The notes below the pieces were generated by a model. The model was not told the origin of the DNA, made no database searches, and saw only the letters and a list, made by a program, of their open reading frames with translations. This document shows, piece after piece, positions 286-22,958 of a stretch of 64,000 nucleotides of DNA; positions within the stretch are counted from its first letter, which is position 1; every line of letters begins with the position of its first letter. This DNA is from Patescibacteria group bacterium. GTDB taxonomy: Bacteria; Patescibacteriota; Minisyncoccia; GCA-002772825. Location of the stretch: the NCBI GenBank assembly GCA_024654625.1, contig JANLHB010000005.1:7191-71190 (forward strand), in the 5' to 3' direction. The translations under genes were made by a program, and so were the position numbers.

Positions 286-830
286 GCGACTTCCTTAATG
301 TCTCAAGAATTGAGAGAGGGAAGATAGATTATGAATTTACCAAGTTTGACCTTGGTAAGCTCGTCGACGAACTCTTCGAAGAGTTTAGTCTTAAGATGAA
401 GGAGGAAGGGAAGACGGATCCTAAACTCTACTTTGATACCGAGGTGAAAGGAGAAGTCGTGATAAACGCCGACGAAGGGAAGATCAAGCAAGTCCTCTCC
501 AACCTGATAGATAATTCTATAAAATACACACCTGTCCACCCGAACGGGCCGTCCGGTTTCGTGAAGATTATTTTTACTTTACCTAAAGATAAAGATGTCG
601 CCCTTGTGACTATTAAAGACTCCGGCGCTGGCATGAGCCAAGAAACTATGGGGAGGCTTTTTGATAAGTTCTCTCGGGCAGACAACGCCTCTAAGTTTAA
701 CACTGCCGGTTCCGGCCTCGGCCTCTATGTGGCCAAAGAGTTTATCTCCAAGCACAACGGCCGCCTCTGGGCGGAGAGTGCCGGCGAGGGGAAGGGTAGC
801 ACATTCTTCGTGGAGTTGCCGAAGGGGTAA
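286..830 (+). pseudogene. 5'-truncated sensor histidine kinase fragment, copy 1 of 6 (end of HisKA plus a complete HATPase_c domain); it starts 3 nt after the argS stop and has no H-box
   Basis: Frame 3 translates GDFLNVSRIERGKIDYEF...IDNSIKYT...DSGAGMSQE...GSGLGLYVAKEFISKHNGRLWAESAGEGKGSTFFVELPKG*. The phospho-acceptor His region and the sensor part are absent. Confidence 0.75.
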
Positions 831-3489: not shown

Positions 3490-4035
3490 TTGTTTATGGA
3501 GAAATCAAATTTTTTTGAAAAACGTATTGAAAGAATGCATAATGCCATAGAAATGGTTCCCACCAAAATTGAAGATATTGATCTTATTGCATCTTGGGAA
3601 TCAAAAGAACCAAATATAATATCTTGGACTAAAGAAAAACATGAATCTATAATAAATAATCCGCAATTCTTACACCTTCTAATTAGTAAGAAAGGTGATA
3701 ATATTGTTCCTGTTGGGTACTCTATTTTGGAAAAGGATTCGCCGGATGAATTGTCTCTAGAGTTTATACGTCTCGTTATATGTGATGAATACAAGAATAA
3801 GGGTTATGGAGTCCTAGCTTTTGAAAATATTTGGGAATTAGCTTTTGATAAATTAAAATATTCTAGAGTTTGGCATGATGTATTTATTGAAAATGAAAAG
3901 GCTATTAATCTTTACGAGAAACTTGGTTATAAAAAATTTAAAACTAGCATTGATTTAACATCCGGTAGAGAGTTGATTTTTTACGAAATGTCTAGCGATG
4001 ATTATTTTTCTAGAGAGAAAGATAATAATTCTTAA
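3490..4035 (+). CDS. GNAT-family N-acetyltransferase
   Basis: Acetyl-CoA motif A-like RLVICDEYKNKGYG and motif B-like NEKAINLYEKLGY. The length is 181 aa. Confidence 0.65.
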   Translation: MFMEKSNFFEKRIERMHNAIEMVPTKIEDIDLIASWESKEPNIISWTKEKHESIINNPQFLHLLISKKGDNIVPVGYSILEKDSPDELSLEFIRLVICDEYKNKGYGVLAFENIWELAFDKLKYSRVWHDVFIENEKAINLYEKLGYKKFKTSIDLTSGRELIFYEMSSDDYFSREKDNNS

Positions 4036-4156: not shown

Positions 4157-6712
4157 ATGGAAAAGCCACCTGATATGCCTAATATCCCCAAAAACTTAAA
4201 CGAAGCGGAAAAAAAAGTTGAAGAAAAAGAAAGATATAATCCTTTTGAAAAAGAAAAATACTGGCAAGATTTCTGGGAAAAGGAAGGTATCTATAAATTT
4301 GATCCTGAGCAACCGGGCCCTCTTTATACTGTAGATACTCCGCCACCAACAATCTCCGGGTCATTGCACCTTGGGCATATTTTTTCTTATACTCAAGCGG
4401 AGGTAATCTCGCGGTTTAAAAGAATGCAAGGGAATAATGTTCGTTATTCTTTTGGTTTTGATAATAATGGTTTGCCAACAGAAAGGTTGGTGGAAAAGGA
4501 ACTTGGGATAAGAGGCGCTAATATGGATTTAGAAGATTTCACAAAAAGCTGCCTTGATATTACGAATAAATATAAACACCTTTATGAAGATCTATGGAAA
4601 TCAATAGGTCTTAGTGTAGACTGGCGACTAGAATATTCCAGTATTTCGCCGGAAGTTCAAAAGAAATCCCAGTCCACTTTTAAGGAGTTATATGAGAGAG
4701 GGGTTATTTATAAAAAAAATGCCCCGGCTCTTTATTGCACAGAGTGTCAGACTTCATTTGCTCAAGCTGAAAAAGAAGATAAAGAAAAAGAAGCTGTTTT
4801 TTATGATTTATCATTTAAGACTGAAGATGATCAGGAATTGATCGTCGCAACAACTCGCCCTGAATTACTGCCCGCATGCAGTGCTGTTTTTGTTAATCCG
4901 GACGATATTAGATTTAAAAACTTAATCGGTAAGAAAGTTATCACTCCCTTGGGAGATGGGGTTGAAATAATGGCTGATGAGAAAGTTGAAAAAGATAAAG
5001 GCTCCGGGGCGGTGATGTGCTGCACCTATGGTGATGAAACAGATATCTATTGGACAAAAAAATATAATTTGAATGAAAAAATCATATTAAACAGATATGG
5101 AAAATTTGAAGATGTAGATGAATTGCCTGACTTGAAAGGGAGGAGAGTAAATGAAGCTAGGAAAATTATCGTTGAAAAATTAAAGTCTGACGGGTTTATA
5201 AAAAAAGAAGAACAGATCAAGCATAATGTTGATGTTCATGAGAGATGCGGTACCCTGGTGGAATTTTTACCGACTACTCAGTGGTTTATGAAAGTACTCG
5301 ATATGAAAGAACGCCTCTTGGATGCGGGAACTCAAATAAAGTGGCATCCTTCATATATGAAGACAAGGTATGAAGATTGGATTAATGGTCTAAAGTGGGA
5401 TTGGTGTATTTCAAGAGAAAGATTTTACGGAATACCAATCCCTGTATTTAGCTGCGATAATTGTGAGAACGTTTTAATCCCAGAGGAAGATCAATTCCCG
5501 ATTGACCCCAAAAAAGAGAAAAATATTCATAATTGTACTGCTTGCGGTGAAGGTAAAATGCTCCCGGAGAAAAATGTCTTGGATACATGGTTTACCTCGT
5601 CTTTATCGCCAGACATAAATAATGACAATCCATTAAATGGCGGATTGAATGGCAAGTTATATCCAATGTCGGTGAGGCCTCAAGCTCACGATATAATTAG
5701 AACATGGGCTGTGTATTCTATCTTGATGGGCTTGTATAAGCATAATGAGATTCCGTGGAGAGATTTAATGATCTCCGGACATATTTTGGTGCAGGAGGGA
5801 GAAAAGATTAGTAAGAAGACCGGTGGAGGAAAATATAAGCCGGAAGAATTAATTGCGACACATTCAGCGGATGCTGTCAGGTATGCGATGTGTGGCGCTT
5901 CGTTAGGCAGAGATTCATATTTTGACGAAAAGGAAGTGAAGAAGGGTAAAAAATTAGTCACTAAAATCTATAATGCCGGCAAGCTGGTGCTTAGTAAACT
6001 GGAAGGATTTGATCCTAAAGTAGAAATAAAAGAAGATGAGCTGGAGGCAATTGACAGGTGGATATTAGACAGATCATTTGAGACGGCAAGTAAGATGTCT
6101 GAATCTTTTGAAAATTATGAATTCAGCCAAGCGCGCCAGATTTTTGAAGACTTTTTTTGGAAAGATTTTTGTGATAATTATTTGGAGATTGTAAAAAGGA
6201 GGCTGGCAATAAAGCCGGACGATAATAAAGAGAAAATGTCAGCGCAATTCACGTCTTACAATTGTTTTCTTAGTGTTATGAAGATGGCTTCTCCTTTTAT
6301 CCCTCATATAACAGAAGAAATGTTCCACGCTCAAACAGTAAAGAAAGAAGATAATGGAGTTGTAAAAGAATCTGTTAGCTCGGAAAGTGGTGGTGGTTAT
6401 TTTTCCAATAATGAAAATATTAAAAGTATACATAGTACTCAGTGGCCATCAACATCACTTGAGTATTCTAATCATGAAAATAATGAAAATGCCAATTTAG
6501 CCTTAGATGTTATCTCAAAAATAAGAAGATTTAAGACTGATAATAAAATAAAATTTGGTACACAAATTACTTTGTTAAAAATAAGATGTCGAGAAGAACA
6601 AAAAAATAAATTAAACGGTTTTTTAGATGATATTACTTCTTTAGCAAAGGCAAATAGTGTTGAAATCGAAATAACAAGTGACGAAGAACTGATTGTAGAG
6701 ATTAGAGTTTAA
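4157..6712 (+). CDS. class Ia aminoacyl-tRNA synthetase (Leu/Ile/Val family), divergent copy with KISKK in place of the canonical KMSKS
   Basis: HIGH region SGSLHLGHIFSY...RFKRMQGNNV...GFDNNGLPTE; WDWCISRERFYGIPIP; DTWFTSS; GEKISKKTGG. The length is 851 aa. It has its own TTGCAA-17-TATATT promoter at about 4098-4126. Confidence 0.6.
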   Translation: MEKPPDMPNIPKNLNEAEKKVEEKERYNPFEKEKYWQDFWEKEGIYKFDPEQPGPLYTVDTPPPTISGSLHLGHIFSYTQAEVISRFKRMQGNNVRYSFGFDNNGLPTERLVEKELGIRGANMDLEDFTKSCLDITNKYKHLYEDLWKSIGLSVDWRLEYSSISPEVQKKSQSTFKELYERGVIYKKNAPALYCTECQTSFAQAEKEDKEKEAVFYDLSFKTEDDQELIVATTRPELLPACSAVFVNPDDIRFKNLIGKKVITPLGDGVEIMADEKVEKDKGSGAVMCCTYGDETDIYWTKKYNLNEKIILNRYGKFEDVDELPDLKGRRVNEARKIIVEKLKSDGFIKKEEQIKHNVDVHERCGTLVEFLPTTQWFMKVLDMKERLLDAGTQIKWHPSYMKTRYEDWINGLKWDWCISRERFYGIPIPVFSCDNCENVLIPEEDQFPIDPKKEKNIHNCTACGEGKMLPEKNVLDTWFTSSLSPDINNDNPLNGGLNGKLYPMSVRPQAHDIIRTWAVYSILMGLYKHNEIPWRDLMISGHILVQEGEKISKKTGGGKYKPEELIATHSADAVRYAMCGASLGRDSYFDEKEVKKGKKLVTKIYNAGKLVLSKLEGFDPKVEIKEDELEAIDRWILDRSFETASKMSESFENYEFSQARQIFEDFFWKDFCDNYLEIVKRRLAIKPDDNKEKMSAQFTSYNCFLSVMKMASPFIPHITEEMFHAQTVKKEDNGVVKESVSSESGGGYFSNNENIKSIHSTQWPSTSLEYSNHENNENANLALDVISKIRRFKTDNKIKFGTQITLLKIRCREEQKNKLNGFLDDITSLAKANSVEIEITSDEELIVEIRV

Positions 6713-6722
6713 TTTATTTAGA

Positions 6723-6978
6723 CTGCCCTCGTGACTATTAAAGACTCCGGCGCTGGCATGAGCCAAGAGACGTTGGATAAAATCTTCGAGAAATTCAACC
6801 GAGCTAAAGATGCCTCCAAGTTCAACACCGAAGGCTCCGGCCTCGGCCTCTACGTGGCTAAAGAGTTCATCGCCAAGCACAACGGCAAGTTGTGGGCGGA
6901 GTCAGCGAGCGTCCCGCCGTGGCGGGATAAAAAGGGAAAGGTAGCACATTCTTCGTGGAGTTGCCGAGGGAGTAGGGG
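6723..6978 (+). pseudogene. histidine-kinase 3' fragment, copy 2 (HATPase_c tail, frameshifted by a ~25-bp insertion that contains the palindrome cccgccgtggcggg)
   Basis: Translation: VTIKDSGAGMSQETLDKIFEKFNRAKDASKFNTEGSGLGLYVAKEFIAKHNGKLWAESA, then the insertion, then ggtagcacattcttcgtggagttgccgaggg. A 38-bp stretch is identical to copy 1. The rest diverges mainly at synonymous sites. Confidence 0.75.
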
Positions 6979-6980
6979 GG

Positions 6981-7469
6981 ATGATAAATATGTTTTATTT
7001 TATAAAAATTATAAATATTTTAAGAAAAATATATTGGTTTATATTCAGGCCTACCACAATAGGGGTCAGGCTTCTAAATATATACAATAATGAAGTTTTA
7101 CTTGTAAAACATACTTATTCTAGTAGCTGGTATTTACCCGGAGGAGGTGCTAAAAATGGAATAGATATTATAGACTCGCTTAAGAGAGAAATTAAAGAAG
7201 AACTCAATATAGATCTTAACGAAGGTCAATTGAGTAGTGCCGATCTGTTTGGAGTTTATGATAATTTCCAGGAATATAAAAACGATTATATCTTTCTGTT
7301 TATCTTAGATAATTTAAAATTAAATTTAACTAAAGCAAAAAATATTGAAATAGAAGAGGCTGGATATTTCAATATTAATAATCTCCCTGGTAGCATATCT
7401 GCCGGTACAAAAAGAAGAATAAATGAGTTTTTATCAAGAAAAGATAAAGTAATAATAAGTAAGTGGTAG
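6981..7469 (+). CDS. NUDIX hydrolase
   Basis: Nudix box LPGGGAKNGIDIIDSLKREIKEELNI. The start follows the gaggg/gggggg stretch at the end of the fragment, which can act as a Shine-Dalgarno sequence. Confidence 0.6.
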   Translation: MINMFYFIKIINILRKIYWFIFRPTTIGVRLLNIYNNEVLLVKHTYSSSWYLPGGGAKNGIDIIDSLKREIKEELNIDLNEGQLSSADLFGVYDNFQEYKNDYIFLFILDNLKLNLTKAKNIEIEEAGYFNINNLPGSISAGTKRRINEFLSRKDKVIISKW

Positions 7470-8749
7470 AGAAAGAAAATAAAATAAAGGCATTAACTCA
7501 ATACAGAGGATTTACTGTTCTTAAGTCTCTGGAGGCAGCTAGTGAAAGAATAGAAATATTAAAAGATATATTGGGAATTAGTGATAATCTAGAATTATTG
7601 AATATTGCAAAAAACGATCCAGAAAAGATACTTTCAAATCTCGGTAATTTATACGACGCCATAGGACCTCGGTCTATGGGGATCAATCCGACCCCTGTAT
7701 GTAATAGACAGTGTACTTTCTGTTCTAGTAGGCAAAGAAATAAGATAAATATAGAAGATAATATTGAAATAACGGAGGATAAATTAAGGAAAGTTTTTGA
7801 AGATTTTATAAGCATGAAAGGGGGAGGGTGTGTGCTGGTTGGTGGAGGAGAGGCATTATTAGCCTGCAAAGGCAAACTTAATGAAGTTATTAATGATTAT
7901 GATTTATATTATGGATTCAATACAAATGGTGTGAATTTGGATAAATTTACGCATGAAAAATTATTAGAAAAAACAAAATGGGTATCACTCAGTTTAATTG
8001 GACACAATAAAGATACATATAATTCTACAGCTGGATTAGATTCTTCAAGTGGTCAGTTTGATGTATTAAATGATAATCTTAAAAAATATATAGAAATAGC
8101 TGATGATTTAAATAGGGAAGGTAAAAGTCATCCCTATATATCAGCAAAAATATTGATATGTAGAGAGAATTATTTATATTCCGGAGAAATATATAATTAT
8201 GCAAAATATTTAGGATTCAAAGATATTTCCCTGAGATGCGTAAACAATTTTGAAATAGAAGAAGAATATAGAAAGAGAAAAATTATTCCTCAAGATATAG
8301 AGCTAACTAAGAAGGAGAAAGAGCAGATAAAAAGTATATTAACCAAAGAAACCGATTTATCAGAAGAGATAATATTTAATATATTGGGTTTACGGGATAA
8401 AATTAAAAATGATACGGTGGTTATAAACCCTACGCTATGTTGGAATGTAGTATTAGGTTTAATAATAAATTTAGATACAAACGGAGAAGTTTTTCTATGT
8501 AACCCAAGGATAGGAATGGAAAGTTTTAGTATTGGAAACATTAATTCAATGAGTCTAAAAAGTCTTTGGAGTGGTTCTATCCATGTTGATGTTGTTAAAA
8601 AAACTTATAAAACATTTAATAAGGGCGCTTGTGACTTAAGTAAATGTCGACACTTTCGTGTAGATCAAGTTATAGAGCAGTTTTTAGAAGGAAAGATATC
8701 ATTAAAAGATAGAAGTTTCGGTGATAAGCAAATGAGTTTTTTCCCTTAG
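7463..8749 (+). CDS. radical SAM protein with a C-terminal SPASM/twitch-like Cys-rich domain and a ~75-aa N-terminal extension
   Basis: CNRQCTFC (CxxxCxxC). C-terminal motifs: NLDTNGEVFLCNP and GACDLSKCRHF. Confidence 0.6.
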   Translation: MVEKENKIKALTQYRGFTVLKSLEAASERIEILKDILGISDNLELLNIAKNDPEKILSNLGNLYDAIGPRSMGINPTPVCNRQCTFCSSRQRNKINIEDNIEITEDKLRKVFEDFISMKGGGCVLVGGGEALLACKGKLNEVINDYDLYYGFNTNGVNLDKFTHEKLLEKTKWVSLSLIGHNKDTYNSTAGLDSSSGQFDVLNDNLKKYIEIADDLNREGKSHPYISAKILICRENYLYSGEIYNYAKYLGFKDISLRCVNNFEIEEEYRKRKIIPQDIELTKKEKEQIKSILTKETDLSEEIIFNILGLRDKIKNDTVVINPTLCWNVVLGLIINLDTNGEVFLCNPRIGMESFSIGNINSMSLKSLWSGSIHVDVVKKTYKTFNKGACDLSKCRHFRVDQVIEQFLEGKISLKDRSFGDKQMSFFP

Positions 8750-8753
8750 AGTT

Positions 8754-8988
8754 TTTTGGAGAAATTCAACCGCGCAGACAACGCCTCCAAGTTCAATACT
8801 GCCGGTTCCGGCCTCGGCCTCTATGTGGCTAAAGCCCCAACACTATCGCTTATCGCGAAAGTGAGGGGTAAAAATTCATCGCCAAGCACAACGGCAAGTT
8901 GTGGGCGGAGTCTGCCGGCGAGGGCAAAGGTAGCACATTCTTCGTGGAGTTGCCGTTAATCTCGACTGGTGTTGAGAAGAAGGGGTAA
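8754..8988 (+). pseudogene. histidine-kinase 3' fragment, copy 3 (disrupted by two short insertions)
   Basis: EKFNRADNASKFNTAGSGLGLYVAK [~40-bp insertion] FIAKHNGKLWAESAGEGKGSTFFVELP [~24-bp insertion] aaggggtaa. Confidence 0.75.
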
Positions 8989-9008: not shown

Positions 9009-9893
9009 ATGAAATTTGAATTTAGAATCTCAAAATGGGCGAATTTTTATTATTTTGTCCAGAATCTCTCAGAATGGCATTTTAGTAATCGTAAAGATTA
9101 TAATATTTTTTGGAGAGAAAAGCTCAAATCTTTCTCAAAAGATGAGGAATCTGTATTAGAAAAATTTAAAGAGATTAGATTTAAATACCCTAAGACAAAA
9201 AGTTGTTTTGAAAGGGCTTTTTTTCTGTCAGAAAGCCCTTTTGAAGAATTGAATAAATGTTTATCTGAAAGAGAATATTTAACAATGAAGGAAATTTTTA
9301 ATGTTTTAGAGGATAAGTTTGATGCTCTGTATAAAGAAGATGAAGTTCTTCTTAAAAAATGGAAAGATGCATTGAGTGAAGAATCTAATGATAAAAACCT
9401 TATAATAAAAATATTGTCTATATTAAAAATCTTATACAAAAGCAATATTGATACACAAGAAGTTTCTGTCACTCTTTTATTTTCTACTCCTGAGCACATA
9501 GGAGGTGGTGCCAATATAGACCGCAATATGATTAGTCTAGAAGTTTCCCGTTACCCGATAGAAAATATAAATCAAGCCATAGGTATTATTTGGCATGAAA
9601 TAATACATTTGATGTTTCAAGAACGGTATTTTTCATTATTATTGGATTATTTTAAGGAAGATGAGCAGGTAGCTGACCTTGTTAATGAGTTAACCGCTGG
9701 ATCATTATTTCCAAATGGAATTTTAGGTATACGAATATTAAAGAATAAACCATCTACTCAATTATTGCCACAAGTTACCAAAGGGCAAACTATTATGATT
9801 ATTAATTTGGCAAAGGAGTATGTTGAAAAAGGCAGTCAACTGGACAGGAATTTTATCAATAGGTTGATAGATATTATTAAGGAGAAGAATTAA
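9009..9893 (+). CDS. hypothetical protein with an HExxH motif; putative zinc metallopeptidase
   Basis: WHEIIHLMF. There is no other recognisable domain. A convergent terminator hairpin at 9905-9938 follows it. Confidence 0.35.
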   Translation: MKFEFRISKWANFYYFVQNLSEWHFSNRKDYNIFWREKLKSFSKDEESVLEKFKEIRFKYPKTKSCFERAFFLSESPFEELNKCLSEREYLTMKEIFNVLEDKFDALYKEDEVLLKKWKDALSEESNDKNLIIKILSILKILYKSNIDTQEVSVTLLFSTPEHIGGGANIDRNMISLEVSRYPIENINQAIGIIWHEIIHLMFQERYFSLLLDYFKEDEQVADLVNELTAGSLFPNGILGIRILKNKPSTQLLPQVTKGQTIMIINLAKEYVEKGSQLDRNFINRLIDIIKEKN

Positions 9894-9944
9894 AAAAATG
9901 TCCGTCTGAGAAAATAAATTCTCAAACGGACATTTTGGAGGGGG

Positions 9945-10127
9945 TTAACCGCTTATGTCTCCCCACCCTGGGTCGCCGCCGCCGAGGTCGTCCCAATTAC
10001 CCCATTGGTCATCCCAGCCCTTAACGTCTTGTGCTTCTTGCTCTCGACATTCGCGCGGTGTGGCGTTTATGTCGAGGAGACTCCTTGTCCTTTCAGAAGC
10101 TCCCTTGATTGCGTTTGAGCCTGTCAT
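9945..10127 (-). CDS. 60-aa Trp/Asp/Gly-rich small protein translationally coupled to the upstream radical SAM-SPASM gene; candidate RiPP precursor peptide
   Basis: MTGSNAIKGASERTRSLLDINATPRECREQEAQDVKGWDDQWGNWDDLGGGDPGWGDISG. On the minus strand a strong SD, gaaaggagataaaaATG, overlaps the last codons of the radical SAM gene. The region is a local GC-rich patch. Confidence 0.45.
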   Translation of the reverse strand: MTGSNAIKGASERTRSLLDINATPRECREQEAQDVKGWDDQWGNWDDLGGGDPGWGDISG

Positions 10128-10129
10128 TT

Positions 10130-11266
10130 TTATCTCCTTTCTATCCGCGGGGGCGGATGGTTTATTTTCCTCACCTTATCTTCAAGGTAAGTAAAAATTT
10201 CTTTTCTAGTCTCGCAGTAGTAGTATTTTCCTTTTACACCTCCTTTCCTATGCATTGTGCAACCGTTATGACAAGCTTTTTCCCATTTGCACATAATGCA
10301 ATCCTGATGCAGATCGTTCACACCTTTTGCATAATTCATTCTTTCTGATCCATTTAGTATATCTAAGAGCGAAGATCTCGAGATATCACCTAATAGGAAA
10401 TTAGGTTGACCTGATGACCTGTCGCATGGGTAAATTCTCCCATCGTATTCAAGACAGAAATATCCCGAGCATGAGCCGTTAAATGAACATCCAGAACTCT
10501 TTTTCCCGAAGATGACCGCGATAAAGTTTTCAATCTCGCGAAGAGCAAGATTAGGATCGTCTTTATCGAGCCAAAGATTGATCTGTTCTTTGAGAAATCT
10601 CGTCAGTTGCTTGTTTGTCAGACCATGGCTATTTGATTTTAAGCCATTTTGTTCCAGGTCAAGATATACGTTCGTGCCCCACTTCTTGATGCCAAGCTCA
10701 TCCGCAAAAAAATGAAAATTTTCTTTTGTGGATGAAAGACTGGAGGATGTAATAGTCTGAATAAATCCCGGTTTTATGCCGTGCTTACGGATGATCTCTA
10801 GCCCTCTCATTACTGAAGAAAATGTCCCTTTGTCGTTGTTGTTTTTTCTGAATCGGTCATGGCTTTCTTTGTTACCATCTAAGCTAATGCCCACTCGAAA
10901 CTGGTATTTTTTGAAGAGCTCAGCCCACTCGTCGTTGATAAGAGTAGCATTGGTCTGTATAAAGTTTTGAACTTTTTGACCGTTTCTGGTGTTAGACGAT
11001 TGAATACGGACGGCTTCTTCGAAGAAGGGGATACCTGCAAGCAATGGTTCTCCACCGTGCCAGATGAAAGAAAGATTTTCGTTAAAGAGAAGTATGTATT
11101 CGCTTAAAAACTTCTCTAACAGTTCAAAATCCATGATACTGTGAGTAGACTGATCTTTGTCGTTATAGAAGCAGTAGCCACAGCGAAGGTTGCAGTAATC
11201 TCCCGCTGGTTTTATGATTGGGACCATCGTTTTAAGTGGGGAAGTAAGTAACACCCGGTTTTTCAT
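10130..11266 (-). CDS. radical SAM enzyme with a SPASM domain (anSME / RiPP-maturase type)
   Basis: CNLRCGYC near the N-terminus. SPASM motifs: CSGYFCLEYDGRIYPCD and CIMCKWEKACHNGC. A strong SD, aaggaggataaaATG. Confidence 0.75.
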   Translation of the reverse strand: MKNRVLLTSPLKTMVPIIKPAGDYCNLRCGYCFYNDKDQSTHSIMDFELLEKFLSEYILLFNENLSFIWHGGEPLLAGIPFFEEAVRIQSSNTRNGQKVQNFIQTNATLINDEWAELFKKYQFRVGISLDGNKESHDRFRKNNNDKGTFSSVMRGLEIIRKHGIKPGFIQTITSSSLSSTKENFHFFADELGIKKWGTNVYLDLEQNGLKSNSHGLTNKQLTRFLKEQINLWLDKDDPNLALREIENFIAVIFGKKSSGCSFNGSCSGYFCLEYDGRIYPCDRSSGQPNFLLGDISRSSLLDILNGSERMNYAKGVNDLHQDCIMCKWEKACHNGCTMHRKGGVKGKYYYCETRKEIFTYLEDKVRKINHPPPRIERR

Positions 11267-11433: not shown

Positions 11434-11610
11434 GCAAAATCTTCGAGAAGTTCAACCGCACTAAAGACGCCTCCAAGTTCAACACCGAAGGCTCCGGCCT
11501 CGGCCTCTATGTGGCTAAAGAGTTCATCAATAAGCACAACGGCCGCCTCTGGGCGGAAAGCCCGGGGGAGGGCAAAGGGAGTACATTCTTCGTGGAATTG
11601 CCGAGGGGGG
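11434..11610 (+). pseudogene. histidine-kinase 3' fragment, copy 4
   Basis: IFEKFNRTKDASKFNTEGSGLGLYVAKEFINKHNGRLWAESPGEGKGSTFFVELPRG. Its end, ccgaggggggtggtagtATG, supplies an SD for the next gene. Confidence 0.75.
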
Positions 11611-11617
11611 TGGTAGT

Positions 11618-12088
11618 ATGGCGTTAGGAGGTATTTCCTGGTATAATGTTTCTATGAATTTATCCAGAGAGCAGAAAATTAAATTAGCTGATTTTGCCGA
11701 AGCAAATGGTATAAAGTTTATAGTTTTGTTCGGCTCGCAGTCTAGAAAAACTTCTAAAAAAGATAGTGATTTTGATATTGCTGTATTAACAACGCCGGAG
11801 AAGAGCATTTTTGAGAGTTTGGAAAATTATAATAATCTTTTGTTTGGCCTATCTGCTATCTTAGAAATACCGGATTATAAGTTTGATCTAACTGATCTGA
11901 ACAATGCTAATATATTGTTGAGATATGAGATTGTTTCGAGCGGGCAGTTATTGTTTGGAGATGAGATCGATTATCTTGAATTTAAATCTTTTGCGACTAG
12001 GGAGTATATTGACGCTAAGAGATTGTTTGATCTTGAAGATTTTTTAATCAAGAAAAAGCAACGATTACTTTCAGAAGTAGTTCTTTAA
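11618..12088 (+). CDS. nucleotidyltransferase, MntA-type antitoxin
   Basis: LFGSQSRKTSKKDSDFDIAVL (GS...D-x-D). It is paired with the downstream HEPN gene. Confidence 0.65.
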   Translation: MALGGISWYNVSMNLSREQKIKLADFAEANGIKFIVLFGSQSRKTSKKDSDFDIAVLTTPEKSIFESLENYNNLLFGLSAILEIPDYKFDLTDLNNANILLRYEIVSSGQLLFGDEIDYLEFKSFATREYIDAKRLFDLEDFLIKKKQRLLSEVVL

Positions 12089-12093
12089 TTACT

Positions 12094-12561
12094 ATGATAA
12101 AAGAAGATTTTGTAAAAAGGAAAATATCATTGATCCAAGATGAACTCAGTAATCTTGAGCGTCTTTCGCATTATTCTTTTGATGAGATAGCAAGCGACCC
12201 CATAAAGCAGGGAGCATTGGAACGCTTTCTTGAAAGGGTTATTAATAGAGCAATAGATATCAATAATCATATTATCGCAGAGCTTGCAGGTCTTGATACT
12301 GCTACGCCGAAGGATTACACAGATAGTTTCTTGGAGTTGGCGAAGTTGGGTATCTATACTAAAGAGTTTGCGGAAAGTATTTCTAAAAGTGCTGGAACGA
12401 GAAATGTGCTTGTGCATGAATATGATAAAATTGACCAGACTAGGATTTATAATTCAGTCGCGGATTGCTTGCGTGATTATCATAAATATTGCGGATACAT
12501 TTTAGAGTTTCTTGAAAAACAACCAAAGGAGAAATACAACCAAAGGAGAAATAATTTGTGA
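12094..12561 (+). CDS. HepT/DUF86 HEPN-domain toxin
   Basis: R-x4-HEY motif RNVLVHEYD. Confidence 0.65.
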   Translation: MIKEDFVKRKISLIQDELSNLERLSHYSFDEIASDPIKQGALERFLERVINRAIDINNHIIAELAGLDTATPKDYTDSFLELAKLGIYTKEFAESISKSAGTRNVLVHEYDKIDQTRIYNSVADCLRDYHKYCGYILEFLEKQPKEKYNQRRNNL

Positions 12562-12576
12562 GGAGCTTGCTGGTGT

Positions 12577-12668
12577 CACGCCGTGGCGGGATAAAAAGAG
12601 GAAGGCTCGCCCGGATGAACCCGTTCGGACGGGGTAGCACATTCTTCGTGGAGTTGCCGAGGGGGTAG
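12577..12668 (+). pseudogene. histidine-kinase 3' fragment, copy 5 (only the last ~35 nt of the CDS plus the same cgccgtggcgggataaaaag element as copy 2 and a second small hairpin)
   Basis: cacgccgtggcgggataaaaag...cccgttcggacgggg tagcacattcttcgtggagttgccgagggggtag. Confidence 0.7.
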
Positions 12669-12677
12669 GGGATAGTT

Positions 12678-13085
12678 TTACTTTTTGATGAGATGATAAA
12701 TTTCCTTGATATATTCTTTTAGATTGTTATAGCTCAATACCGAAGATACCTCATTTGTCGGTACCCATTTAATGTCATCCCCTTTAAATTCCGGCCTTAA
12801 GAGGGTGTCGTCCTCAGATTGCACTAGAAACATTTTTATTGAAATATTATTTCCATTTGGATGTGTGTAATTTATGTCCGGTAAATCGCATAAAATTTCT
12901 ACTAATAGCCCTGTCTCCTCTTTAACTTCTCTAATCATTGCGTTAGTCGGATCCTCACCATCCTCAATGTGTCCCTTGGGAAAGGACCAATCTTTTTGTT
13001 TCCCACTATAAAGCAGGGCAATTTTACTTTGATCATCCTTACTCAAAATAATAGCGCCGGCTTTCTGGATTAATTTAATAGTCAT
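12678..13085 (-). CDS. NUDIX hydrolase
   Basis: Nudix box GHIEDGEDPTNAMIREVKEETGL. Confidence 0.7.
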   Translation of the reverse strand: MTIKLIQKAGAIILSKDDQSKIALLYSGKQKDWSFPKGHIEDGEDPTNAMIREVKEETGLLVEILCDLPDINYTHPNGNNISIKMFLVQSEDDTLLRPEFKGDDIKWVPTNEVSSVLSYNNLKEYIKEIYHLIKK

Positions 13086-13135
13086 AGTTAGTATTACACT
13101 ATATCACTTATATACCTTTTAGGTTGCAGGTACCC

Positions 13136-13831
13136 CTATTGGGTGATTTTTTTTGCAATTAAAATTAGCCTTGGACTGGTCAAAGAATATTCACTAAAAT
13201 CATAGTTGCCGATAACACGCTCAACAGAAAAACCGGATTTTTCCATCCATTGACTCCAAACAGGATAAGGTGGGTATGGAATTCTAAGATTAGCTTTTTT
13301 ATCGATAAGCTCTAATTTTTTCGCATCAAATGCAAATGGCGAGTTAGGATTTTTCTCAAGGTAAGAAACGATCCTAAATAAATTATCCGTATCAATCAGA
13401 ATTTTGCCTCCGGGTTTAATGTTGCGACCTATTGAAGAGACTGCCTTTTCAATGTTGATGTTGGCTAAGTCGGAGAAAAACCAGTATGCCTTGTCATATT
13501 TCTTTCTTAACTTTAGTTGTTCAATATTGGCTTTATAATAATTCGGCGTTCTTTTGCCGGATTTTTTAGATTCATCTTTTGCTTTACTAAGTAGGTATTT
13601 AGAAAAATCAACACCGTCTACTAAATAACCTCTTTCACTTAGGGCTTTTGTGTGGCGACCTTGCCCGCAAGCAATATCAAAGATGGTATCATTTTTTTTA
13701 AGACTAAGAGCTTTAATTAAAAAGTCAGAATCTTTCTTTATACTTGCTGAAGTTAGAAATGAATCATGATCCTTTAAATAATCACCCTTTTCTCCGTAGT
13801 ATTTAGATAAAAATTCTTTAGATTTTGACAT
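13136..13831 (-). CDS. class I SAM-dependent methyltransferase
   Basis: Motif I IFDIACGQGRHT. The length is 231 aa. Confidence 0.65.
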   Translation of the reverse strand: MSKSKEFLSKYYGEKGDYLKDHDSFLTSASIKKDSDFLIKALSLKKNDTIFDIACGQGRHTKALSERGYLVDGVDFSKYLLSKAKDESKKSGKRTPNYYKANIEQLKLRKKYDKAYWFFSDLANINIEKAVSSIGRNIKPGGKILIDTDNLFRIVSYLEKNPNSPFAFDAKKLELIDKKANLRIPYPPYPVWSQWMEKSGFSVERVIGNYDFSEYSLTSPRLILIAKKITQ

Positions 13832-13904
13832 GGTGTATTCTTATATGTATTAATATACTGGATAATATATCAAATAGAAGGTAAAGATGATAGTATGTAT
13901 AATG

Positions 13905-13938
13905 TGACCCATTCTTCGTGGAGTTGTCGTAGGGGAGA
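13905..13938 (+). repeat. histidine-kinase 3' fragment, copy 6 (shortest remnant: tgacccattcttcgtggagttgtcgtagggg)
   Basis: It matches the terminal ~30 nt of the other copies. It is preceded by tatgtataatg, the same -10 context that lies upstream of copy 4. Confidence 0.65.
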
Positions 13939-13977
13939 GAGTAGATTTGATAATAGTTTTTATGGTATAATGTTCTT

Positions 13978-14268
13978 ATGGAAAAAGACGTTATTATTAA
14001 AAAATTGGATAAAAGCCTGTCGGTTTTGAAAGAGAAATACAATGTGAGAAGCATTGGTGTTTTCGGTTCGTATGTAAGAAATGAGGCAAAGGCAGGGAGT
14101 GATTTGGATATTTTAGTCACATTTGAAAAGCCGATAGGATTGTTAAAATTTATAGAACTGGAAAATTATCTCTCAGAATTGACAGGAATAAAAGTTGATT
14201 TGGTATCTCAGAAAGCGCTTAAGCCCAGGATAGGAAAGCAGATATTGGAAGAAGTGGTGAATGTCTGA
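13978..14268 (+). CDS. nucleotidyltransferase, MntA-type antitoxin (second copy, a divergent paralog)
   Basis: VFGSYVRNEAKAGSDLDILV. Confidence 0.65.
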   Translation: MEKDVIIKKLDKSLSVLKEKYNVRSIGVFGSYVRNEAKAGSDLDILVTFEKPIGLLKFIELENYLSELTGIKVDLVSQKALKPRIGKQILEEVVNV

Positions 14269-14623
14269 TCTTATGAAAAGAGATTATCTGGATTATCTTC
14301 AAGATATTATTGACTCAATAAATGACATTGAGAGTTTTGTTGGTGGGATGAATTTTAATTCGTTTGAAAAAGATAAAAAAACTATGAATGCGGTTGTAAG
14401 GAGCTTAGAGATAATCGGCGAAGCTGTTAAGAAAATACCGGAAGATGTGAAGGATAAGTACTCAGATATTCCATGGAAGAATATGTCGGGCATGAGAGAT
14501 AAACTAATCCATGAATACTTTGGCATTGATGAAGAGATTGTTTGGAATGTTGCAATAGAAGAATTGCCTCCTCTTGGGTCATTGTTTAAAAAAATTTTAA
14601 CAGAATCGGGGACGGAGGAATAA
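14261..14623 (+). CDS. HepT/DUF86 HEPN toxin (second copy)
   Basis: RDKLIHEYFGID. Confidence 0.65.
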   Translation: MSDLMKRDYLDYLQDIIDSINDIESFVGGMNFNSFEKDKKTMNAVVRSLEIIGEAVKKIPEDVKDKYSDIPWKNMSGMRDKLIHEYFGIDEEIVWNVAIEELPPLGSLFKKILTESGTEE

Positions 14624-14627
14624 GGCC

Positions 14628-15377
14628 ATGCATATACTAAGGACAAGATTTAAAAAAGAGATAGTGGCTGAATTCTTACCTCCATCAAGGATGTTAAAAG
14701 AGAATAAAGTTATCATCTTTTGCCAGGGGATGCCTAGTGGATCTTCAAAGAAAGACCTTCTCGAATTCTTTAGTAAGAAGGGATACTGGGTATTTCACCC
14801 GCGTTATAGAGGTTCATGGGAGAGTGGAGGCGAATTCCTGAAGCTTTCGCCTCATCAAGATATCTTGGACATTATAGAGCAATTGCCAAAAGGGTTCCGT
14901 AGCGCGTGGGACGGTAAACTCTTTAAGGTGAATCCGGATAAAGTTTATCTTTTTGGTTCAAGTTTTGGCGGTCCGGCCGCTATTCTTGCTTCAGGGTATC
15001 CTTTAGTAGATAAGGTGGTGGTGTTTTCTCCCGTTATCGATTGGAGGTCTCCAAGTAAGGTGGAGCCTCTTGATCAACTGGGCAGGTTCGTCAAGACTGG
15101 TTTCGGAGAAGCTTATCGTTTTCCGATCAAAAATTGGAATAAATTAAAAAATGGCAAATTCTATAATCCTATTGCCGAGACAAAGGATATAGATGGGAAG
15201 AAAATATTTATCATCCACGCTAAAGACGACGAAGTGGTGTCATACATACCCTCAAAAAAATTCTCAGAAAAGACAGGCTGTAAGCTGGTTTTACTGAAAA
15301 AGGGAGGGCATTTATCAGCAAAAAATTTCATCAAAAAGAGTTTCTATAAAAAAATAAGGTGGTTTATTAAAGAGTAA
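14628..15377 (+). CDS. alpha/beta hydrolase (dienelactone hydrolase / S9 peptidase-like)
   Basis: Nucleophile elbow LFGSSFGG (G-x-S-x-G). Confidence 0.5.
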   Translation: MHILRTRFKKEIVAEFLPPSRMLKENKVIIFCQGMPSGSSKKDLLEFFSKKGYWVFHPRYRGSWESGGEFLKLSPHQDILDIIEQLPKGFRSAWDGKLFKVNPDKVYLFGSSFGGPAAILASGYPLVDKVVVFSPVIDWRSPSKVEPLDQLGRFVKTGFGEAYRFPIKNWNKLKNGKFYNPIAETKDIDGKKIFIIHAKDDEVVSYIPSKKFSEKTGCKLVLLKKGGHLSAKNFIKKSFYKKIRWFIKE

Positions 15378-15383
15378 TTATTA

Positions 15384-15671
15384 ATGACCAAAAAATTTCA
15401 GCGGAATATTGAGGACTTCGTGTGCGGGCATTGCGGGGCGAGAGTCAGGGGCAACGGCTACACTAACCATTGCCCCAAGTGCCTGTGGAGCAAGCATGTG
15501 GATGTGAACCCGGGCGACAGGGGAGCGGACTGCGGAGGGATGATGAAGCCCGTTTCTGCCGAGCAGAAGAGTGGAGAGTGGCGGATCCTCCATAAGTGTG
15601 AGAAATGCGGACATGAGAAGATAAACAGGCTATCAAAAGATGACGACTTTGATAAAGTGACGAAGATGTAA
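15384..15671 (+). CDS. RNHCP-domain zinc-ribbon protein
   Basis: CGHCG...TNHCPKC...CEKCGH. The gene is GC-rich compared with its flanks. Confidence 0.45.
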   Translation: MTKKFQRNIEDFVCGHCGARVRGNGYTNHCPKCLWSKHVDVNPGDRGADCGGMMKPVSAEQKSGEWRILHKCEKCGHEKINRLSKDDDFDKVTKM

Positions 15672-15711
15672 TCTTAACCTCGATATAAGTTCGTGATATA
15701 ATTACCTCGTT

Positions 15712-17514
15712 GTGACGGAAAATAAAAAACGAACAAAAAATAATAAAAAATTTTACGCGGGGTTTATAGTCACTTTGCGTTACTTGGCTGAGTATAAGAA
15801 TGATATAATCTTACTTTCTGTTCTCGGTGTAATCTCCGCGCTTGCCAACGGAGCAGTGCCTTACTTAGTGGGGCGTCTCTTTGATGCAATCATCTCTCCG
15901 GGGGTAATCTTTGTCGGCACCTCAATAGAGATGCCCTTCTGGCTCTTCTTTGTAATTATATGGGGAATAGCTCAGTTTATTGCTAATTTTGTCGACTGGA
16001 GGAGCGGTATAAGAAGCAATGAAATAAGTACCAACATGCATAGCGGTTATGTTATTAAGGGATTTAATCGTTTGCTGGAGTTACCGATGTCTTTCCATAA
16101 AGAACATAAGGTTGGTGAAGTTGGGGAGAAGATAAACAGAGCAGCTAATGCTTTTTTTGATATGACATATAGTGTGATCATTACTCTTGCTCCTCAGTTC
16201 TTGAGTATCTTTATCGCTTTTGCGATAGCGCTGTATCTAAATTATATCCTTGCTGGTGTGATGTTCTTCGGGGTCGTCGCCTATGTAGTAGTTATGCTAA
16301 ATGCAGCCCCGCCAATCGCTGTTCTCTCTAGGAAAATGAATAAAACTTATGGCAGGGTTTACGGTGATTCTTACGATGCCATATTTAATGCTCAGGCTAT
16401 CAAGCAGGCAACAGCTGAGAACTATGAACAAAGAAATATAACCAATAGATTTAAGAATCAAGCTGGTCGACTTTATATTAATATGATGCGCGGTTGGCAG
16501 GGGCTGACTTTCTACCAGAGAGTGATTGTCATGTTCACTCAACTCACAGTTTTTGTGTTATCGACCGCCTTTATTCAGAACGGGTCTATGACTATAGGAG
16601 AGCTCGTGATGTTTAATGGATACGCCATGATGTTTTTCGGGCCTTTTGTGGTGTTGGGAAATAATTGGCAAGTGGTGCAGAATGGATTGACTGCTATTGA
16701 ACAGGCTGAAAAAATATTATCCACTCCTGCTGAAAATTATGAACCTGAAAATGCGGTGATACTTGATGACATAAAAGGCGAGGTTGAGTTTAAGGATGTC
16801 TATTTCTCCTACGATAAGAAAGGAAAGTATGTCTTGAATGATATAAATATCAAAGTGAACCCCGGGGAGGTGGTGGCGCTTGTCGGCGAGTCGGGTGTGG
16901 GGAAGAGTACCCTTATAGACCTTATCTCCGGATATCATTTTGCGGATAAAGGGAAAGTGTTGATAGACGGTCATAATGTGAAGCAGTTTAACTTGAAGTT
17001 CCTCCGCTCCAAGATAGGGGTGGTGCCTCAAGAGGTAGTCCTCTTCAACGAAGCGATAAAGGTGAATATTAAGTACGGCAGTTTCGGCGCTTCTCTTCGT
17101 GATGTGAAGAGGGCGGCGGAAGATGCTCACTGCACCAGCTTCATTGAAAAATTCCCCAAGAAGTGGGACCAGGTTGTGGGGGAGCGCGGAGTGAAGCTCT
17201 CCGTGGGGCAGAAGCAGAGGGTGGCTATTGCCCGAGCGATACTCCGTGACCCGAAGATTTTAATCCTTGATGAGCCGACCTCCGCGCTTGACGCCAAGTC
17301 GGAGAAGATCATCCAAGAGTCCCTAGAGAGACTGATGAAAGGGAAGACAACCTTCATTATCGCCCACAGGCTAAGCACGGTAAGAAAGGCGGATAAGATT
17401 ATCGTCTTTGAGAAAGGCCGGATTGTGGAAATGGGCAAACACGATGAGCTTATAAAAAAAGAAAATGGTGTGTATCGGAACCTTCATGAATTCCAAGTGG
17501 GGCTGAATGATTAA
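15712..17514 (+). CDS. ABC transporter, fused permease/ATPase (type I exporter, MsbA-like)
   Basis: Six predicted TM helices. Walker A GESGVGKST, signature LSVGQKQR and Walker B ILILDE. Confidence 0.8.
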   Translation: MTENKKRTKNNKKFYAGFIVTLRYLAEYKNDIILLSVLGVISALANGAVPYLVGRLFDAIISPGVIFVGTSIEMPFWLFFVIIWGIAQFIANFVDWRSGIRSNEISTNMHSGYVIKGFNRLLELPMSFHKEHKVGEVGEKINRAANAFFDMTYSVIITLAPQFLSIFIAFAIALYLNYILAGVMFFGVVAYVVVMLNAAPPIAVLSRKMNKTYGRVYGDSYDAIFNAQAIKQATAENYEQRNITNRFKNQAGRLYINMMRGWQGLTFYQRVIVMFTQLTVFVLSTAFIQNGSMTIGELVMFNGYAMMFFGPFVVLGNNWQVVQNGLTAIEQAEKILSTPAENYEPENAVILDDIKGEVEFKDVYFSYDKKGKYVLNDINIKVNPGEVVALVGESGVGKSTLIDLISGYHFADKGKVLIDGHNVKQFNLKFLRSKIGVVPQEVVLFNEAIKVNIKYGSFGASLRDVKRAAEDAHCTSFIEKFPKKWDQVVGERGVKLSVGQKQRVAIARAILRDPKILILDEPTSALDAKSEKIIQESLERLMKGKTTFIIAHRLSTVRKADKIIVFEKGRIVEMGKHDELIKKENGVYRNLHEFQVGLND

Positions 17515-21977: not shown

Positions 21978-22958
21978 ATGAAGAGATTATTGATTAAGGA
22001 AAAGAGGATAGAAGGATTATATGAAGTAGCACTCGGCCTTGTAACCATCGACAGTGTGAAGTATTCTGTAGATTTGATAAGAAAGGTTATATCCGTCAAG
22101 GATAATTTCCTTGTCGGCAGTATAAGGGCCGATGATAAAGAGATCTGGCACTTTAAAAATGCCAGATACAACGGCATTTGTGTCGTCACGGAAGTTGACG
22201 ACACAGTCGTCCTTTGTTTCCTCTCTCATAGCAACGAGCTCGAGTGGATAGTGCCACTTGAGCACCTGCGTGATTCGCAGATTATTGATGGTGAAATGGT
22301 CACCGCGATGGACGTGGGGGAGAGGCTTATCCTTAAGCAGGCCGCGGCAAAAGAGATCGGCGCCGTAGTTAAGCTTTCTCCGCTGGAGGAAAAAGTCTCG
22401 TCTTATCTTTCCGTGAAGCGGAGGGAGAAGGAAGAGGCAGAGAGACTTGAGAGGAGCCGTCTCAAAGAGGAGAGGCGCGCTGAGATAATGGCGCGTGAGA
22501 GCATCTCGGCGTATACTGAGACCGGCGCTGGTAGGTTTGGTAAGCCGGTCACAGCTGACGAGTGGCCGTGTCTGCCGAACGGCACCCGGGTCATCCTCGT
22601 CGAGAGCTTCAACAAGGAGACGGGCGAATGTGGCCCGACCAGAGAAGCCTTTATTATAAGGAAGGGAAAAGGAGGCAGGATAGAGAAAGAGAACGCCTCC
22701 GAGGTGGCGAGCGAGCGTCCGGCGCCTAAATTCGTCGAAGTTAAGGCGAAGAAGGTCATAATCGTCGATATGGACGGGGCCATGAGACAGATCCCCGTCT
22801 ATAAAACGACGGAGGAAATAGAGCTGGCCAAGAAAGCAGGCTTGAACGGAGGCTCAATGGTGACCTCCGAGGACCAGAGGGATGAGAAGGGGAGATATCT
22901 CATATCGTCCCTTAAGGGTCCGGTGGAGAAAAAACTGGGGTCCTTCATGCCCCTGTAA
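21978..22958 (+). CDS. hypothetical protein (GC-rich relative to the genome; likely horizontally acquired)
   Basis: A 326-aa ORF with no recognisable motif. It is followed by a very strong terminator. Confidence 0.35.
   Translation: MKRLLIKEKRIEGLYEVALGLVTIDSVKYSVDLIRKVISVKDNFLVGSIRADDKEIWHFKNARYNGICVVTEVDDTVVLCFLSHSNELEWIVPLEHLRDSQIIDGEMVTAMDVGERLILKQAAAKEIGAVVKLSPLEEKVSSYLSVKRREKEEAERLERSRLKEERRAEIMARESISAYTETGAGRFGKPVTADEWPCLPNGTRVILVESFNKETGECGPTREAFIIRKGKGGRIEKENASEVASERPAPKFVEVKAKKVIIVDMDGAMRQIPVYKTTEEIELAKKAGLNGGSMVTSEDQRDEKGRYLISSLKGPVEKKLGSFMPL

Follow-up and report, generated by a model that had tools for sequence, protein, structure and literature searches.

Toxin-antitoxin and NUDIX cassettes among kinase-gene fragments in a variable region of a Patescibacteria genome

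Introduction

Is an array of small gene cassettes, set between copies of one repeated sequence and carrying toxin-antitoxin (TA) operons, an integron? The question is raised by a 64,000-nucleotide (nt) stretch from a Patescibacteria group bacterium (assembly GCA_024654625.1, contig JANLHB010000005.1), hereafter the window, whose interval 11618-14623 encodes the pair MntA1 and HepT1, NUDIX2 and a methyltransferase on the minus strand, and then MntA2 and HepT2 as a second pair. An earlier note on this DNA likened the array to a chromosomal superintegron with duplicated MntA/HepT pairs and duplicated NUDIX genes as cargo. Few TA families are as abundant as MntA/HepT, and NUDIX genes occur everywhere; examples of type VII HepT/MntA systems are SO_3165/3166 of Shewanella oneidensis and the HEPN/MNT pair of Aphanizomenon flos-aquae. 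MntA AMPylates the tyrosine of the HepT R-x4-H-x-Y motif, thereby blocking its RNase (PMC7641770), and TA cassettes stabilise the chromosomal integrons of Vibrio (PMC11023631; 10.1101/2022.08.03.502626).

Here, we examine the window together with five related low-GC Patescibacteria contigs (L007, L014, L015, L019 and L025). We consider it highly probable that MntA1-HepT1, NUDIX2 with the methyltransferase, and MntA2-HepT2 are three separate, independently acquired cassettes in a lineage-specific hypervariable region that is punctuated by kinase-gene fragments and is not an integron. On this reading, the cargo was acquired together with, or next to, kinase 3' ends from different lineages.

Two toxin-antitoxin pairs and two NUDIX genes of separate descent

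As the earlier note had observed, the two MntA/HepT pairs are non-identical and directly follow repeat copies 4 and 6 (c4 and c6, see below), which is borne out by Pfam matches, by motifs and by start codons 50 nt (MntA1 after c4) and 48 nt (MntA2 after c6) downstream of the repeat core (Table 1). In the translations, the GS-x10-DxD motif reads GSQSRKTSKKDSDFD in MntA1 and GSYVRNEAKAGSDLD in MntA2, and R-x4-H-E-Y is present in both HepT proteins. The MntA1 open reading frame (ORF) is open from 11618, with its likely start at the ATG at 11654, 6 nt past a TGgTATAAT box (11639-11647); the MntA2 ATG likewise lies 6 nt past a TGgTATAAT box, at 13963-13971. The genes of pair 1 are separated by 5 nt. 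In pair 2 the annotated ORFs share 8 nt; with HepT2 read from 14273, its probable start and the one that matches the starts of its orthologs, the two genes are instead separated by 4 nt. A TATAAT box stands exactly 6 nt 5' of the ATG in all four MntA operons seen with upstream sequence, with an extended TGn in three of them, a spacing that suggests leaderless transcripts. The upstream regions of MntA1 and MntA2 have a 12-nt promoter string, TGGTATAATGTT, in common, despite the unrelated proteins. Within the window, all MntA, HepT and NUDIX genes are confined to the first 15 kb, inside the array.

The paralogs are far apart. Global amino acid (aa) identity is 31% between MntA1 and MntA2, 25% between HepT1 and HepT2 and 21% between NUDIX1 and NUDIX2, and BLASTP alignments cover only 62, 21 and 25 residues in the same order, while the DNA can hardly be aligned at all. 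Far closer relatives are found in other genomes: MntA1 and HepT1 share 91% and 97% aa identity with copies in L019, MntA2 and HepT2 share 83-90% and 84-88% with orthologs in L015 and L025, and NUDIX2 has orthologs in L015 (79% aa; 83.5% nt) and L025 (88% nt). No ortholog of NUDIX1 was found in the related loci compared. These values agree with the proposal, made in the earlier note, that the paralogs are divergent and stem from independent acquisitions.

Structural matches separate the two pairs further. MntA1 is related to Protein Data Bank (PDB) chains 5YEP_A (3.8e-07) and 7AE2_B, and HepT1 matches 7AE9_A (3.3e-18) and 5YEP_B (the A and B chains of 5YEP match MntA1 and HepT1 at about 1e-7); the PDB matches of MntA2 are limited to the minimal nucleotidyltransferases 1WOT (1.8e-13) and HI0073. 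Because pair 1 matches the characterised 7AE9 and 5YEP complexes, MntA2 matches 1WOT and HI0073, and HepT2 lacks a PDB match, the two operons are, judged from their sequences, members of different subfamilies of the type VII TA family. They resemble that family in MntA-then-HepT order, tight linkage and the combination of GS-x10-DxD with R-x4-H-x-Y, and pair 1 is homologous to solved complexes; they depart from it in that pair 2 falls in a minimal DUF86/HI0073-like branch and that HepT1 carries an 8-aa C-terminal extension. This extension arises from a 17-nt tandem duplication (CAACCAAAGGAGAAATA, twice) at 12520-12553, which removes the stop codon used by the 97%-identical L019 copy and adds 8 aa that run into stub c5.

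The NUDIX genes lie in different cassettes and on opposite strands, as the earlier note had placed them, and both score above the Pfam cut-off. Measured against the Nudix box consensus G-x5-E-x7-REUxEExGU, the NUDIX2 box is canonical (G-x5-E-x7-REVKEETGL; GHIEDGEDPTNAMIREVKEETGL) and that of NUDIX1 is degenerate (G-x5-I-x7-REIKEELNI): REIKEE is kept, but I stands in place of the first E and N in place of the last G. By sequence, the two appear unrelated beyond the fold. In addition, MntA2 matches the PADLOC defence-candidate family PDC-S09 (2e-28) and NUDIX2 matches PDC-S07 (4.2e-15).

Relatives of the toxins are spread widely. HepT1 has a 97%-identical (aa) relative in one contig and 60-71% relatives in more than 100 proteins, some labelled Patescibacteria or Nitrospirae, whereas a database search with HepT2 returned 2779 homologs, three of them 85-88% identical and many at 60-78%, of which some are labelled Wolfebacteria, Elusimicrobia, WOR-1 or Thermoproteota. 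The nearest relatives of the TA genes are mostly metagenome proteins without a taxonomy label. In a plasmid collection, HepT1-type genes occur in 9 records (cyanobacteria, haloarchaea and one Bacillus) and HepT2-type genes in 1503 records, mostly enterobacterial conjugative plasmids, all below 60% identity.

The repeats are 3' ends of histidine-kinase genes

The array is punctuated by a 20-mer core, CATTCTTCGTGGAGTTGCCG, with six plus-strand matches at no more than 1 mismatch in the window (Table 1) and none in 100 shuffles. Each match lies in a stub, a 5'-truncated 3' end of HATPase_c (histidine-kinase) coding sequence, and the stubs c1 to c6, about 560, 250, 200, 175, 110 and 35 nt long, are direct copies with a common 3' boundary; a profile search of the window found no stub beyond the six. 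Where a gene comes before a stub (ValRS, HepT1), the stub begins at its stop codon or within a few nt of it. The longest, c1, holds an ORF at 396-830 (144 aa, HATPase_c only, Pfam 6.9e-26), is truncated directly after the ArgRS stop at 282, and shows nucleotide homology to the histidine kinases of L014 and L015 from 271-285 onward. In c2, c3 and c5 the kinase frame is broken by insertions. The c1 protein corresponds to NCBI entry MCR4342301.1, on a Patescibacteria contig of 105,920 nt. That contig starts, six genes before c1, with another partial kinase copy (MCR4342295.1) of 96% identity, so that beyond the six stubs of the window there is at least one other. Against a genome contig collection the core gave 3 matches, all in high-GC unrelated kinases, and against viral contigs 3 unrelated matches at 58-69% GC, none of them in a matching low-GC context.

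Differences between stubs follow the codon frame. Counted at codon positions 1/2/3, they number 6/4/21 between c1 and c4 (P about 1e-4), 3/1/14 between c4 and an L014 copy, and 43/28/103 when the six within-window pairs are pooled. Moreover, the stub copies of a single genome do not form one group in a neighbour-joining tree: c4 joins L015 copies, and the stub that follows MntA2-HepT2 in L015 joins L014 copies. Copy c4 is 86-88% identical to L014 and L015 copies vs 78-84% to c1-c3. Because such a third-position bias is absent from copies that diverge in place as dead DNA, and because copies within one genome are polyphyletic, the stubs must, on this sequence pattern, have been functional kinase genes of different lineages while they diverged, and must have come together later. 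The three stub copies of L014 are mutually 97-100% identical, so copies must also undergo gene conversion or have recently been exchanged. An extra DNA-level constraint on the core was considered and is unsupported, as third positions inside the core vary between genomes.

A further peculiarity of the stubs is a frame-breaking insertion of about 20 nt, common to c2 (6912-6927), c5 (12576-12591) and the L019 stub (about 925-945). The c2 version (TCCCGCCGTGGCGGGA, followed by TAAAA) is perfectly palindromic, those of c5 (TCACGCCGTGGCGGGA) and L019 are imperfect variants, and the L014 stub that corresponds in position to c2 is free of the insertion. The stubs also break metagenome assembly: L014 starts (1-143) and ends (10376-10612) inside stubs, and the parent contig of the window starts with the partial kinase MCR4342295.1.

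Cassette turnover among related genomes

The related contigs carry the same kinds of building blocks in other combinations. In L015, which has five stub copies, MntA2-HepT2 has cores on both sides and is accompanied by a NUDIX2 ortholog, hydrolase remnants and the RNHCP-ABC transporter right border; nucleotide identity to the window is 84.5% for MntA2-HepT2 and 75.6% for the ABC right border. L019, which starts inside MntA1, continues from MntA1-HepT1 through a c5-like stub to the hydrolase and RNHCP genes, with 91.5% nt identity over MntA1-HepT1 and 79.5% over hydrolase-RNHCP; relative to L019, the window has an extra segment, 12669-14627, comprising NUDIX2, the methyltransferase, c6, MntA2 and HepT2. 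In L025 the order is a stub, MntA2-HepT2 (89% nt), another stub and NUDIX2 (88% nt), opposite to that of the window. L007 reads kinase end, MntA3-HepT3, stub, an 8-kb glycosyltransferase cluster with a GNAT gene, and RNHCP plus ABC transporter; its MntA3 and HepT3, which follow a repeat, are a third type, 25-32% identical to types 1 and 2, and its RNHCP-ABC segment is 74% identical (nt) to window 15381-17501. Finally, L014 runs from a stub through five genes, including another NUDIX gene, to a truncated kinase, four genes, ValRS and a stub. ValRS and the next stub (c2) are 89% identical between L014 and the window, with homology starting only at window 4079, and the PLP (pyridoxal phosphate) fusion and GNAT genes between c1 and ValRS are replaced by four other genes in L014.

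Several junctions coincide with the repeat. In the window, L015 and L025, which differ in their upstream sequence, homology over the MntA2-HepT2 unit sets in exactly with base 1 of the core. Of the five MntA/HepT cassettes with surroundings seen, four (window pair 1, L007, L015 and L025) have cores about 1 kb apart on both sides; of a sixth, in L019, the contig covers the downstream side. Cassettes are less diverged than flanks in the comparisons with L015 and L019. More distant relatives, L023 and L024 (kinase about 52% identical), have one kinase copy each, next to aminoacyl-tRNA synthetase (aaRS) genes, and the multi-copy state is therefore clade-specific. Thus, cassettes are gained, lost and reordered among relatives, with recombination at stubs. 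The mobile nature that the earlier note ascribed to the array is supported by the turnover directly visible across the five contigs, and its cargo is probably addictive as well, by analogy with other TA cassettes.

A few observations stand beside this comparison. At L015 12181-12323, two short remnants (81-82% nt) are left of the alpha/beta hydrolase that is intact at window 14628-15377, so that the gene has decayed there. A second kind of 'repeat plus TA' array is seen in L020 (4290-12432; also in L021 and L022), from a different Patescibacteria genome (Hainich groundwater), in which four diverged paralogous fn3-domain genes (62-90% nt), spaced about 1.9-2.2 kb, alternate with four TA modules: MntA/HepT, HEPN/MNT, HigB-like and AbiEii.

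How the cassettes may be maintained and moved

We suggest that each TA operon would be transcribed from its own extended -10 promoter, 6 nt 5' of the ATG, probably as a leaderless mRNA. MntA would then AMPylate the motif tyrosine of HepT and silence the RNase, as shown for homologs of pair 1; the residues needed are all present here. If an operon were lost, for example by loop-out between its flanking direct repeats (spaced by about 1 kb), HepT would be released and the cell arrested, such that TA cassettes would stabilise an otherwise deletion-prone array, as do the TA cassettes of chromosomal integrons. Since MntA2 matches PDC-S09 and NUDIX2 matches PDC-S07, a role of the TA cassettes in abortive infection or defence is plausible, and they may act there too. 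Gain, loss and reordering proceed by recombination at the stubs, as the comparisons above show.

By what means the DNA moved can be answered only in terms of probability. Host homologous recombination acting on imported or looped-out DNA is a plausible route, at a little short of an even chance; it is favoured because of the gene conversion in L014, because some breakpoints lie at conserved genes, and because the core is without special synonymous-site constraint. A site-specific enzyme is favoured because two independent cassettes end in a stub of only 30-40 nt and because the MntA2-HepT2 boundary coincides exactly with the core. Such an enzyme could have belonged to integrase-borne elements targeting the kinase 3' end, of which the cassettes would be remnants, a possibility to which we give somewhat less weight than to host recombination.

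A more specific form of this idea, which we hold to be on the unlikely side though worth serious attention, has integrase-carrying elements insert at the kinase 3' end in the manner of tRNA-gene islands and then erode, with the integrases and most genes deleted and the TA pairs left over as maintenance modules. A duplicated gene 3' end whose copies all stop at one 3' point is what Campbell-type insertion of circular DNA carrying that end leaves behind. In favour of such elements, the direct repeats are target-gene 3' ends that share their 3' limit but reach back to different distances on the 5' side, the copies go back to different coding alleles, and, at 30-40 nt, the minimal copies (c6; L015 8200-8219) offer little length for RecA-driven exchange. 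Tandem islands at the 3' ends of tRNA, tmRNA or protein genes share the direct repeats made of target 3' portions, the common 3' boundary, the different alleles and the tandem inserts; unlike tandem tyrosine-integrase islands, however, the array has no integrase in any insert, its inserts measure 1-6 kb vs tens of kb, and some copies are only about 30 nt long. Furthermore, neither an integrase nor a remnant of one was seen in the six related loci, the core was not found on any viral contig of comparably low GC, and the 97-100% identity of the L014 copies shows active homologous exchange or gene conversion.

It is unlikely, more so than the eroded elements, that the region is an ordinary strain-variable islet shaped by homologous recombination and indels only, with the kinase fragments as incidental debris. 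Some replacements are indeed bounded by a conserved gene (ValRS, hydrolase) and not by the repeat, third positions vary inside the core between genomes, and distant relatives keep a single kinase copy by aaRS genes. Incidental debris, however, sits poorly with stub counts of six, five, three and two in four relatives, with the double-sided core boundaries of four of five MntA/HepT cassettes about 1 kb apart, and with the start of MntA2-HepT2 homology at the core's first base in three genomes with three upstream contexts.

A dedicated recombinase encoded elsewhere is, in our estimate, a doubtful source of the cassette movement. Equally doubtful is the wider proposal of an integron-like capture in this Patescibacteria clade, in which the end, about 30-40 bp long, of a now truncated histidine-kinase gene would be the site for a recombinase encoded elsewhere, the units would consist of 1-2 genes plus a stub, and MntA/HepT would be the smallest, self-stabilising cassettes. 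A parallel is found in the pdif modules of Acinetobacter and other Xer-dependent integrative elements, which are also small, recombinase-less, often TA-bearing and tied to short conserved sites with the enzyme encoded elsewhere; pdif sites, however, are 28-bp dif-like sequences in alternating orientation, whereas the six cores here are all direct (+), with no dif-like dyad by inspection.

The reading of three independently acquired cassettes in a stub-punctuated region has several points to set against it. MntA2-HepT2 of the window abuts the hydrolase gene without a stub between them, and the replacement between c1 and ValRS has the repeat only on its left, so not every rearrangement is repeat-bounded. 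The comparison of cassette and flank identity sets different genes side by side and could partly reflect different constraint. ValRS and, by accession order, ArgRS, both presumed essential, lie between repeat copies and are hard to square with a purely mobile-cassette picture. With 64 kb of the genome seen, a recombinase may lie elsewhere. As for the TA function, the 8-aa C-terminal extension could impair HepT1, and HepT2 has no PDB sequence match at E < 0.01, hence no sequence-detectable solved relative.

The array is not an integron

It is very improbable that the array is a true sedentary chromosomal integron, or else an integrase-less cluster of attC sites (CALIN), in which IntI would recombine the repeats as attC sites and the TA and NUDIX genes would be the cassettes. 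There are real likenesses to a superintegron of the Vibrio cholerae type: a repeated separator in one orientation, cassettes of 1-2 genes, TA operons that bring promoters of their own, a cargo of small hydrolases, acetyltransferases and defence-type genes, an order that varies between relatives, and TA modules that plausibly guard the array against deletion (PMC11023631). Stubs that start at, or a few nt from, the preceding stop also resemble attC sites, and cassette content and order differ between the five contigs and the window with junctions at the repeat, as in integrons.

The defining parts, however, are absent. Pfam was run against every ORF of at least 110 aa in the 64-kb window, and none matched a tyrosine or serine recombinase (PF00589/Phage_integrase, resolvase); the gene to the left of c1 is ArgRS. 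No recombinase appeared in about 50 kb of related arrays, and no integrase gene or remnant in L007, L014, L015, L019 or L025. The sole transposase- or recombinase-like gene of the window is an IS30-like transposase at 48692-49687 (-; HTH_38 9e-17, weak rve), 34 kb from the array. DNA folding revealed no shared hairpin in the stubs on either strand (z -2.6 to +1.0, with c6 essentially unstructured), and attC-like folding was rejected, given that the stubs lack a common hairpin and align as HATPase_c coding sequence. A GLGL-box coding block is partly complementary to the core in c2 only, c5 and c6 being without that block, and this complementarity is probably a by-product of GC-rich coding sequence. 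The core reads GTTGCCG vs GTTRRRY in attC. Cassettes occur on both strands, three array genes being on the minus strand (Table 1), and both MntA genes have -10 boxes of their own (TGnTATAAT) directly before them.

Compared with a superintegron, then, the array has no IntI, attI or Pc, its separators are 30-560 nt kinase 3' fragments and not attC hairpins, and housekeeping aaRS genes lie inside it. As an IntI-type integrase and attC sites were both sought in the window and not found, the array should be classed neither as an integron nor as an attC cluster without integrase, and the name 'chromosomal superintegron' given in the earlier note is unsupported. A search for literature on Patescibacteria and integrons found nothing relevant.

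That the paired genes are local duplicates that diverged in place has next to no probability, since, for all that two copies per gene type lie within 8 kb and TGGTATAATGTT precedes both MntA genes, the paralogs share at most 31% aa identity (21-31%) with almost no alignable DNA and the two TA pairs fall in different structural subfamilies, each copy having relatives of 79-97% aa identity in other genomes, the reverse of the mutually closest, highly identical copies that the earlier note had named as the mark of local duplication.

Other genes of the array

The earlier note took TA pairs and small hydrolases to be typical cargo of cassette arrays and genomic islets, and the cargo as a whole is of this kind: TA operons, NUDIX, methyltransferase, GNAT and radical-SAM genes, together with the PDC-S09 and PDC-S07 matches. 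The genes are ordinary, new members of known families; their stub-punctuated setting is less so. The pair of an HExxH protein (294-326 aa, no Pfam family) and a radical-SAM/SPASM protein recurs in L015 at 1034-3122 with 30-32% identity and in inverted order, and because it recurs in this inverted arrangement it is probably a functional two-gene module, as far as sequence can tell. On the right, the variable region is closed off by RNHCP and ABC transporter genes, a border conserved in L007 and L015. Genes for aaRS, namely ArgRS and ValRS in the window and a class Ib synthetase in L015 (14318-15301), lie between or directly before kinase stubs. Further to the right, a 326-aa ORF without a Pfam match (21978-22958) forms a 1-kb stretch of 52% GC vs about 33-44% around it. 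An Rfam scan at gathering threshold found only a tRNA-Ala, and ARAGORN one tRNA, 47 kb from the array.

Table 1. Features of the array, in window coordinates unless a related contig is named
Feature	Position	Strand	Description
ArgRS	67-282		directly left of c1
c1	271-830	+	longest histidine-kinase remnant; core 802-821
PALP/Cys-Met PLP fusion	841-3459	+	Pfam
GNAT	3490-4035	+	Pfam
ValRS	4157-6712	+	Pfam; between c1 and c2
c2	6722-6976	+	pseudogene fragment, frame broken by the palindromic insertion; core 6947-6966
NUDIX1	6981-7469	+	Pfam NUDIX 2.3e-11; after c2
radical-SAM/SPASM	7463-8749	+	Pfam; follows NUDIX1
c3	8756-8957	+	38-nt insertion; core 8936-8955
cassette after c3	9009-11266		HExxH protein and radical-SAM/SPASM gene
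HExxH protein	9009-9893	+	294 aa
radical-SAM/SPASM	10130-11266	-	
c4	11436-11612	+	core 11584-11603, 1 mismatch
MntA1 upstream box	11639-11656		TATAAT 6 nt from ATG
MntA1	11654-12088	+	nucleotidyltransferase antitoxin; Pfam Polbeta 2.4e-17; GS-x10-DFD
HepT1	12094-12561	+	predicted HEPN RNase toxin; Pfam HepT-like 5.1e-25; RNVLVHEY
c5	12557-12668	+	short fragment, two insertions, begins at HepT1 stop; core 12640-12659
NUDIX2	12678-13085	-	Pfam NUDIX 1.5e-16; after c5
class I SAM-dependent methyltransferase	13136-13831	-	Pfam Methyltransf_25/11; cassette-mate of NUDIX2
c6	13897-13936	+	minimal copy, about 30-40 nt; core 13910-13929, 1 mismatch
MntA2 upstream box	13963-13980		TATAAT 6 nt from ATG
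MntA2	13978-14268	+	minimal nucleotidyltransferase antitoxin; Pfam NTP_transf_2 6.4e-18; GS-x10-DLD
HepT2	14261-14623	+	predicted DUF86/HepT-like toxin; Pfam HepT-like 1.2e-30; RDKLIHEY
right flank	14628-17514	+	three genes below (Pfam)
alpha/beta hydrolase	14628-15377	+	
RNHCP protein	15384-15671	+	
ABC transporter	15712-17514	+	
L007 MntA upstream box	11903-11887	-	TATAAT 6 nt from ATG
L025 MntA upstream box	100-117		TATAAT 6 nt from ATG

Implications

In loci from six related, very small Patescibacteria genomes, cassettes of 1-6 kb have been swapped and reordered between direct repeats made of kinase 3' ends, with no recombinase seen. The breaks that assemblies suffer at the stubs matter for binning and annotating such genomes. 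Little is known of how genes flow in the Candidate Phyla Radiation, and if a dedicated enzyme does act on the stubs, the region would be a device for integron-like gene capture in that group. Should homologous recombination and DNA uptake alone be at work, the region would show how a reduced genome can assemble and keep a variable set of genes by means of repeats and TA modules.

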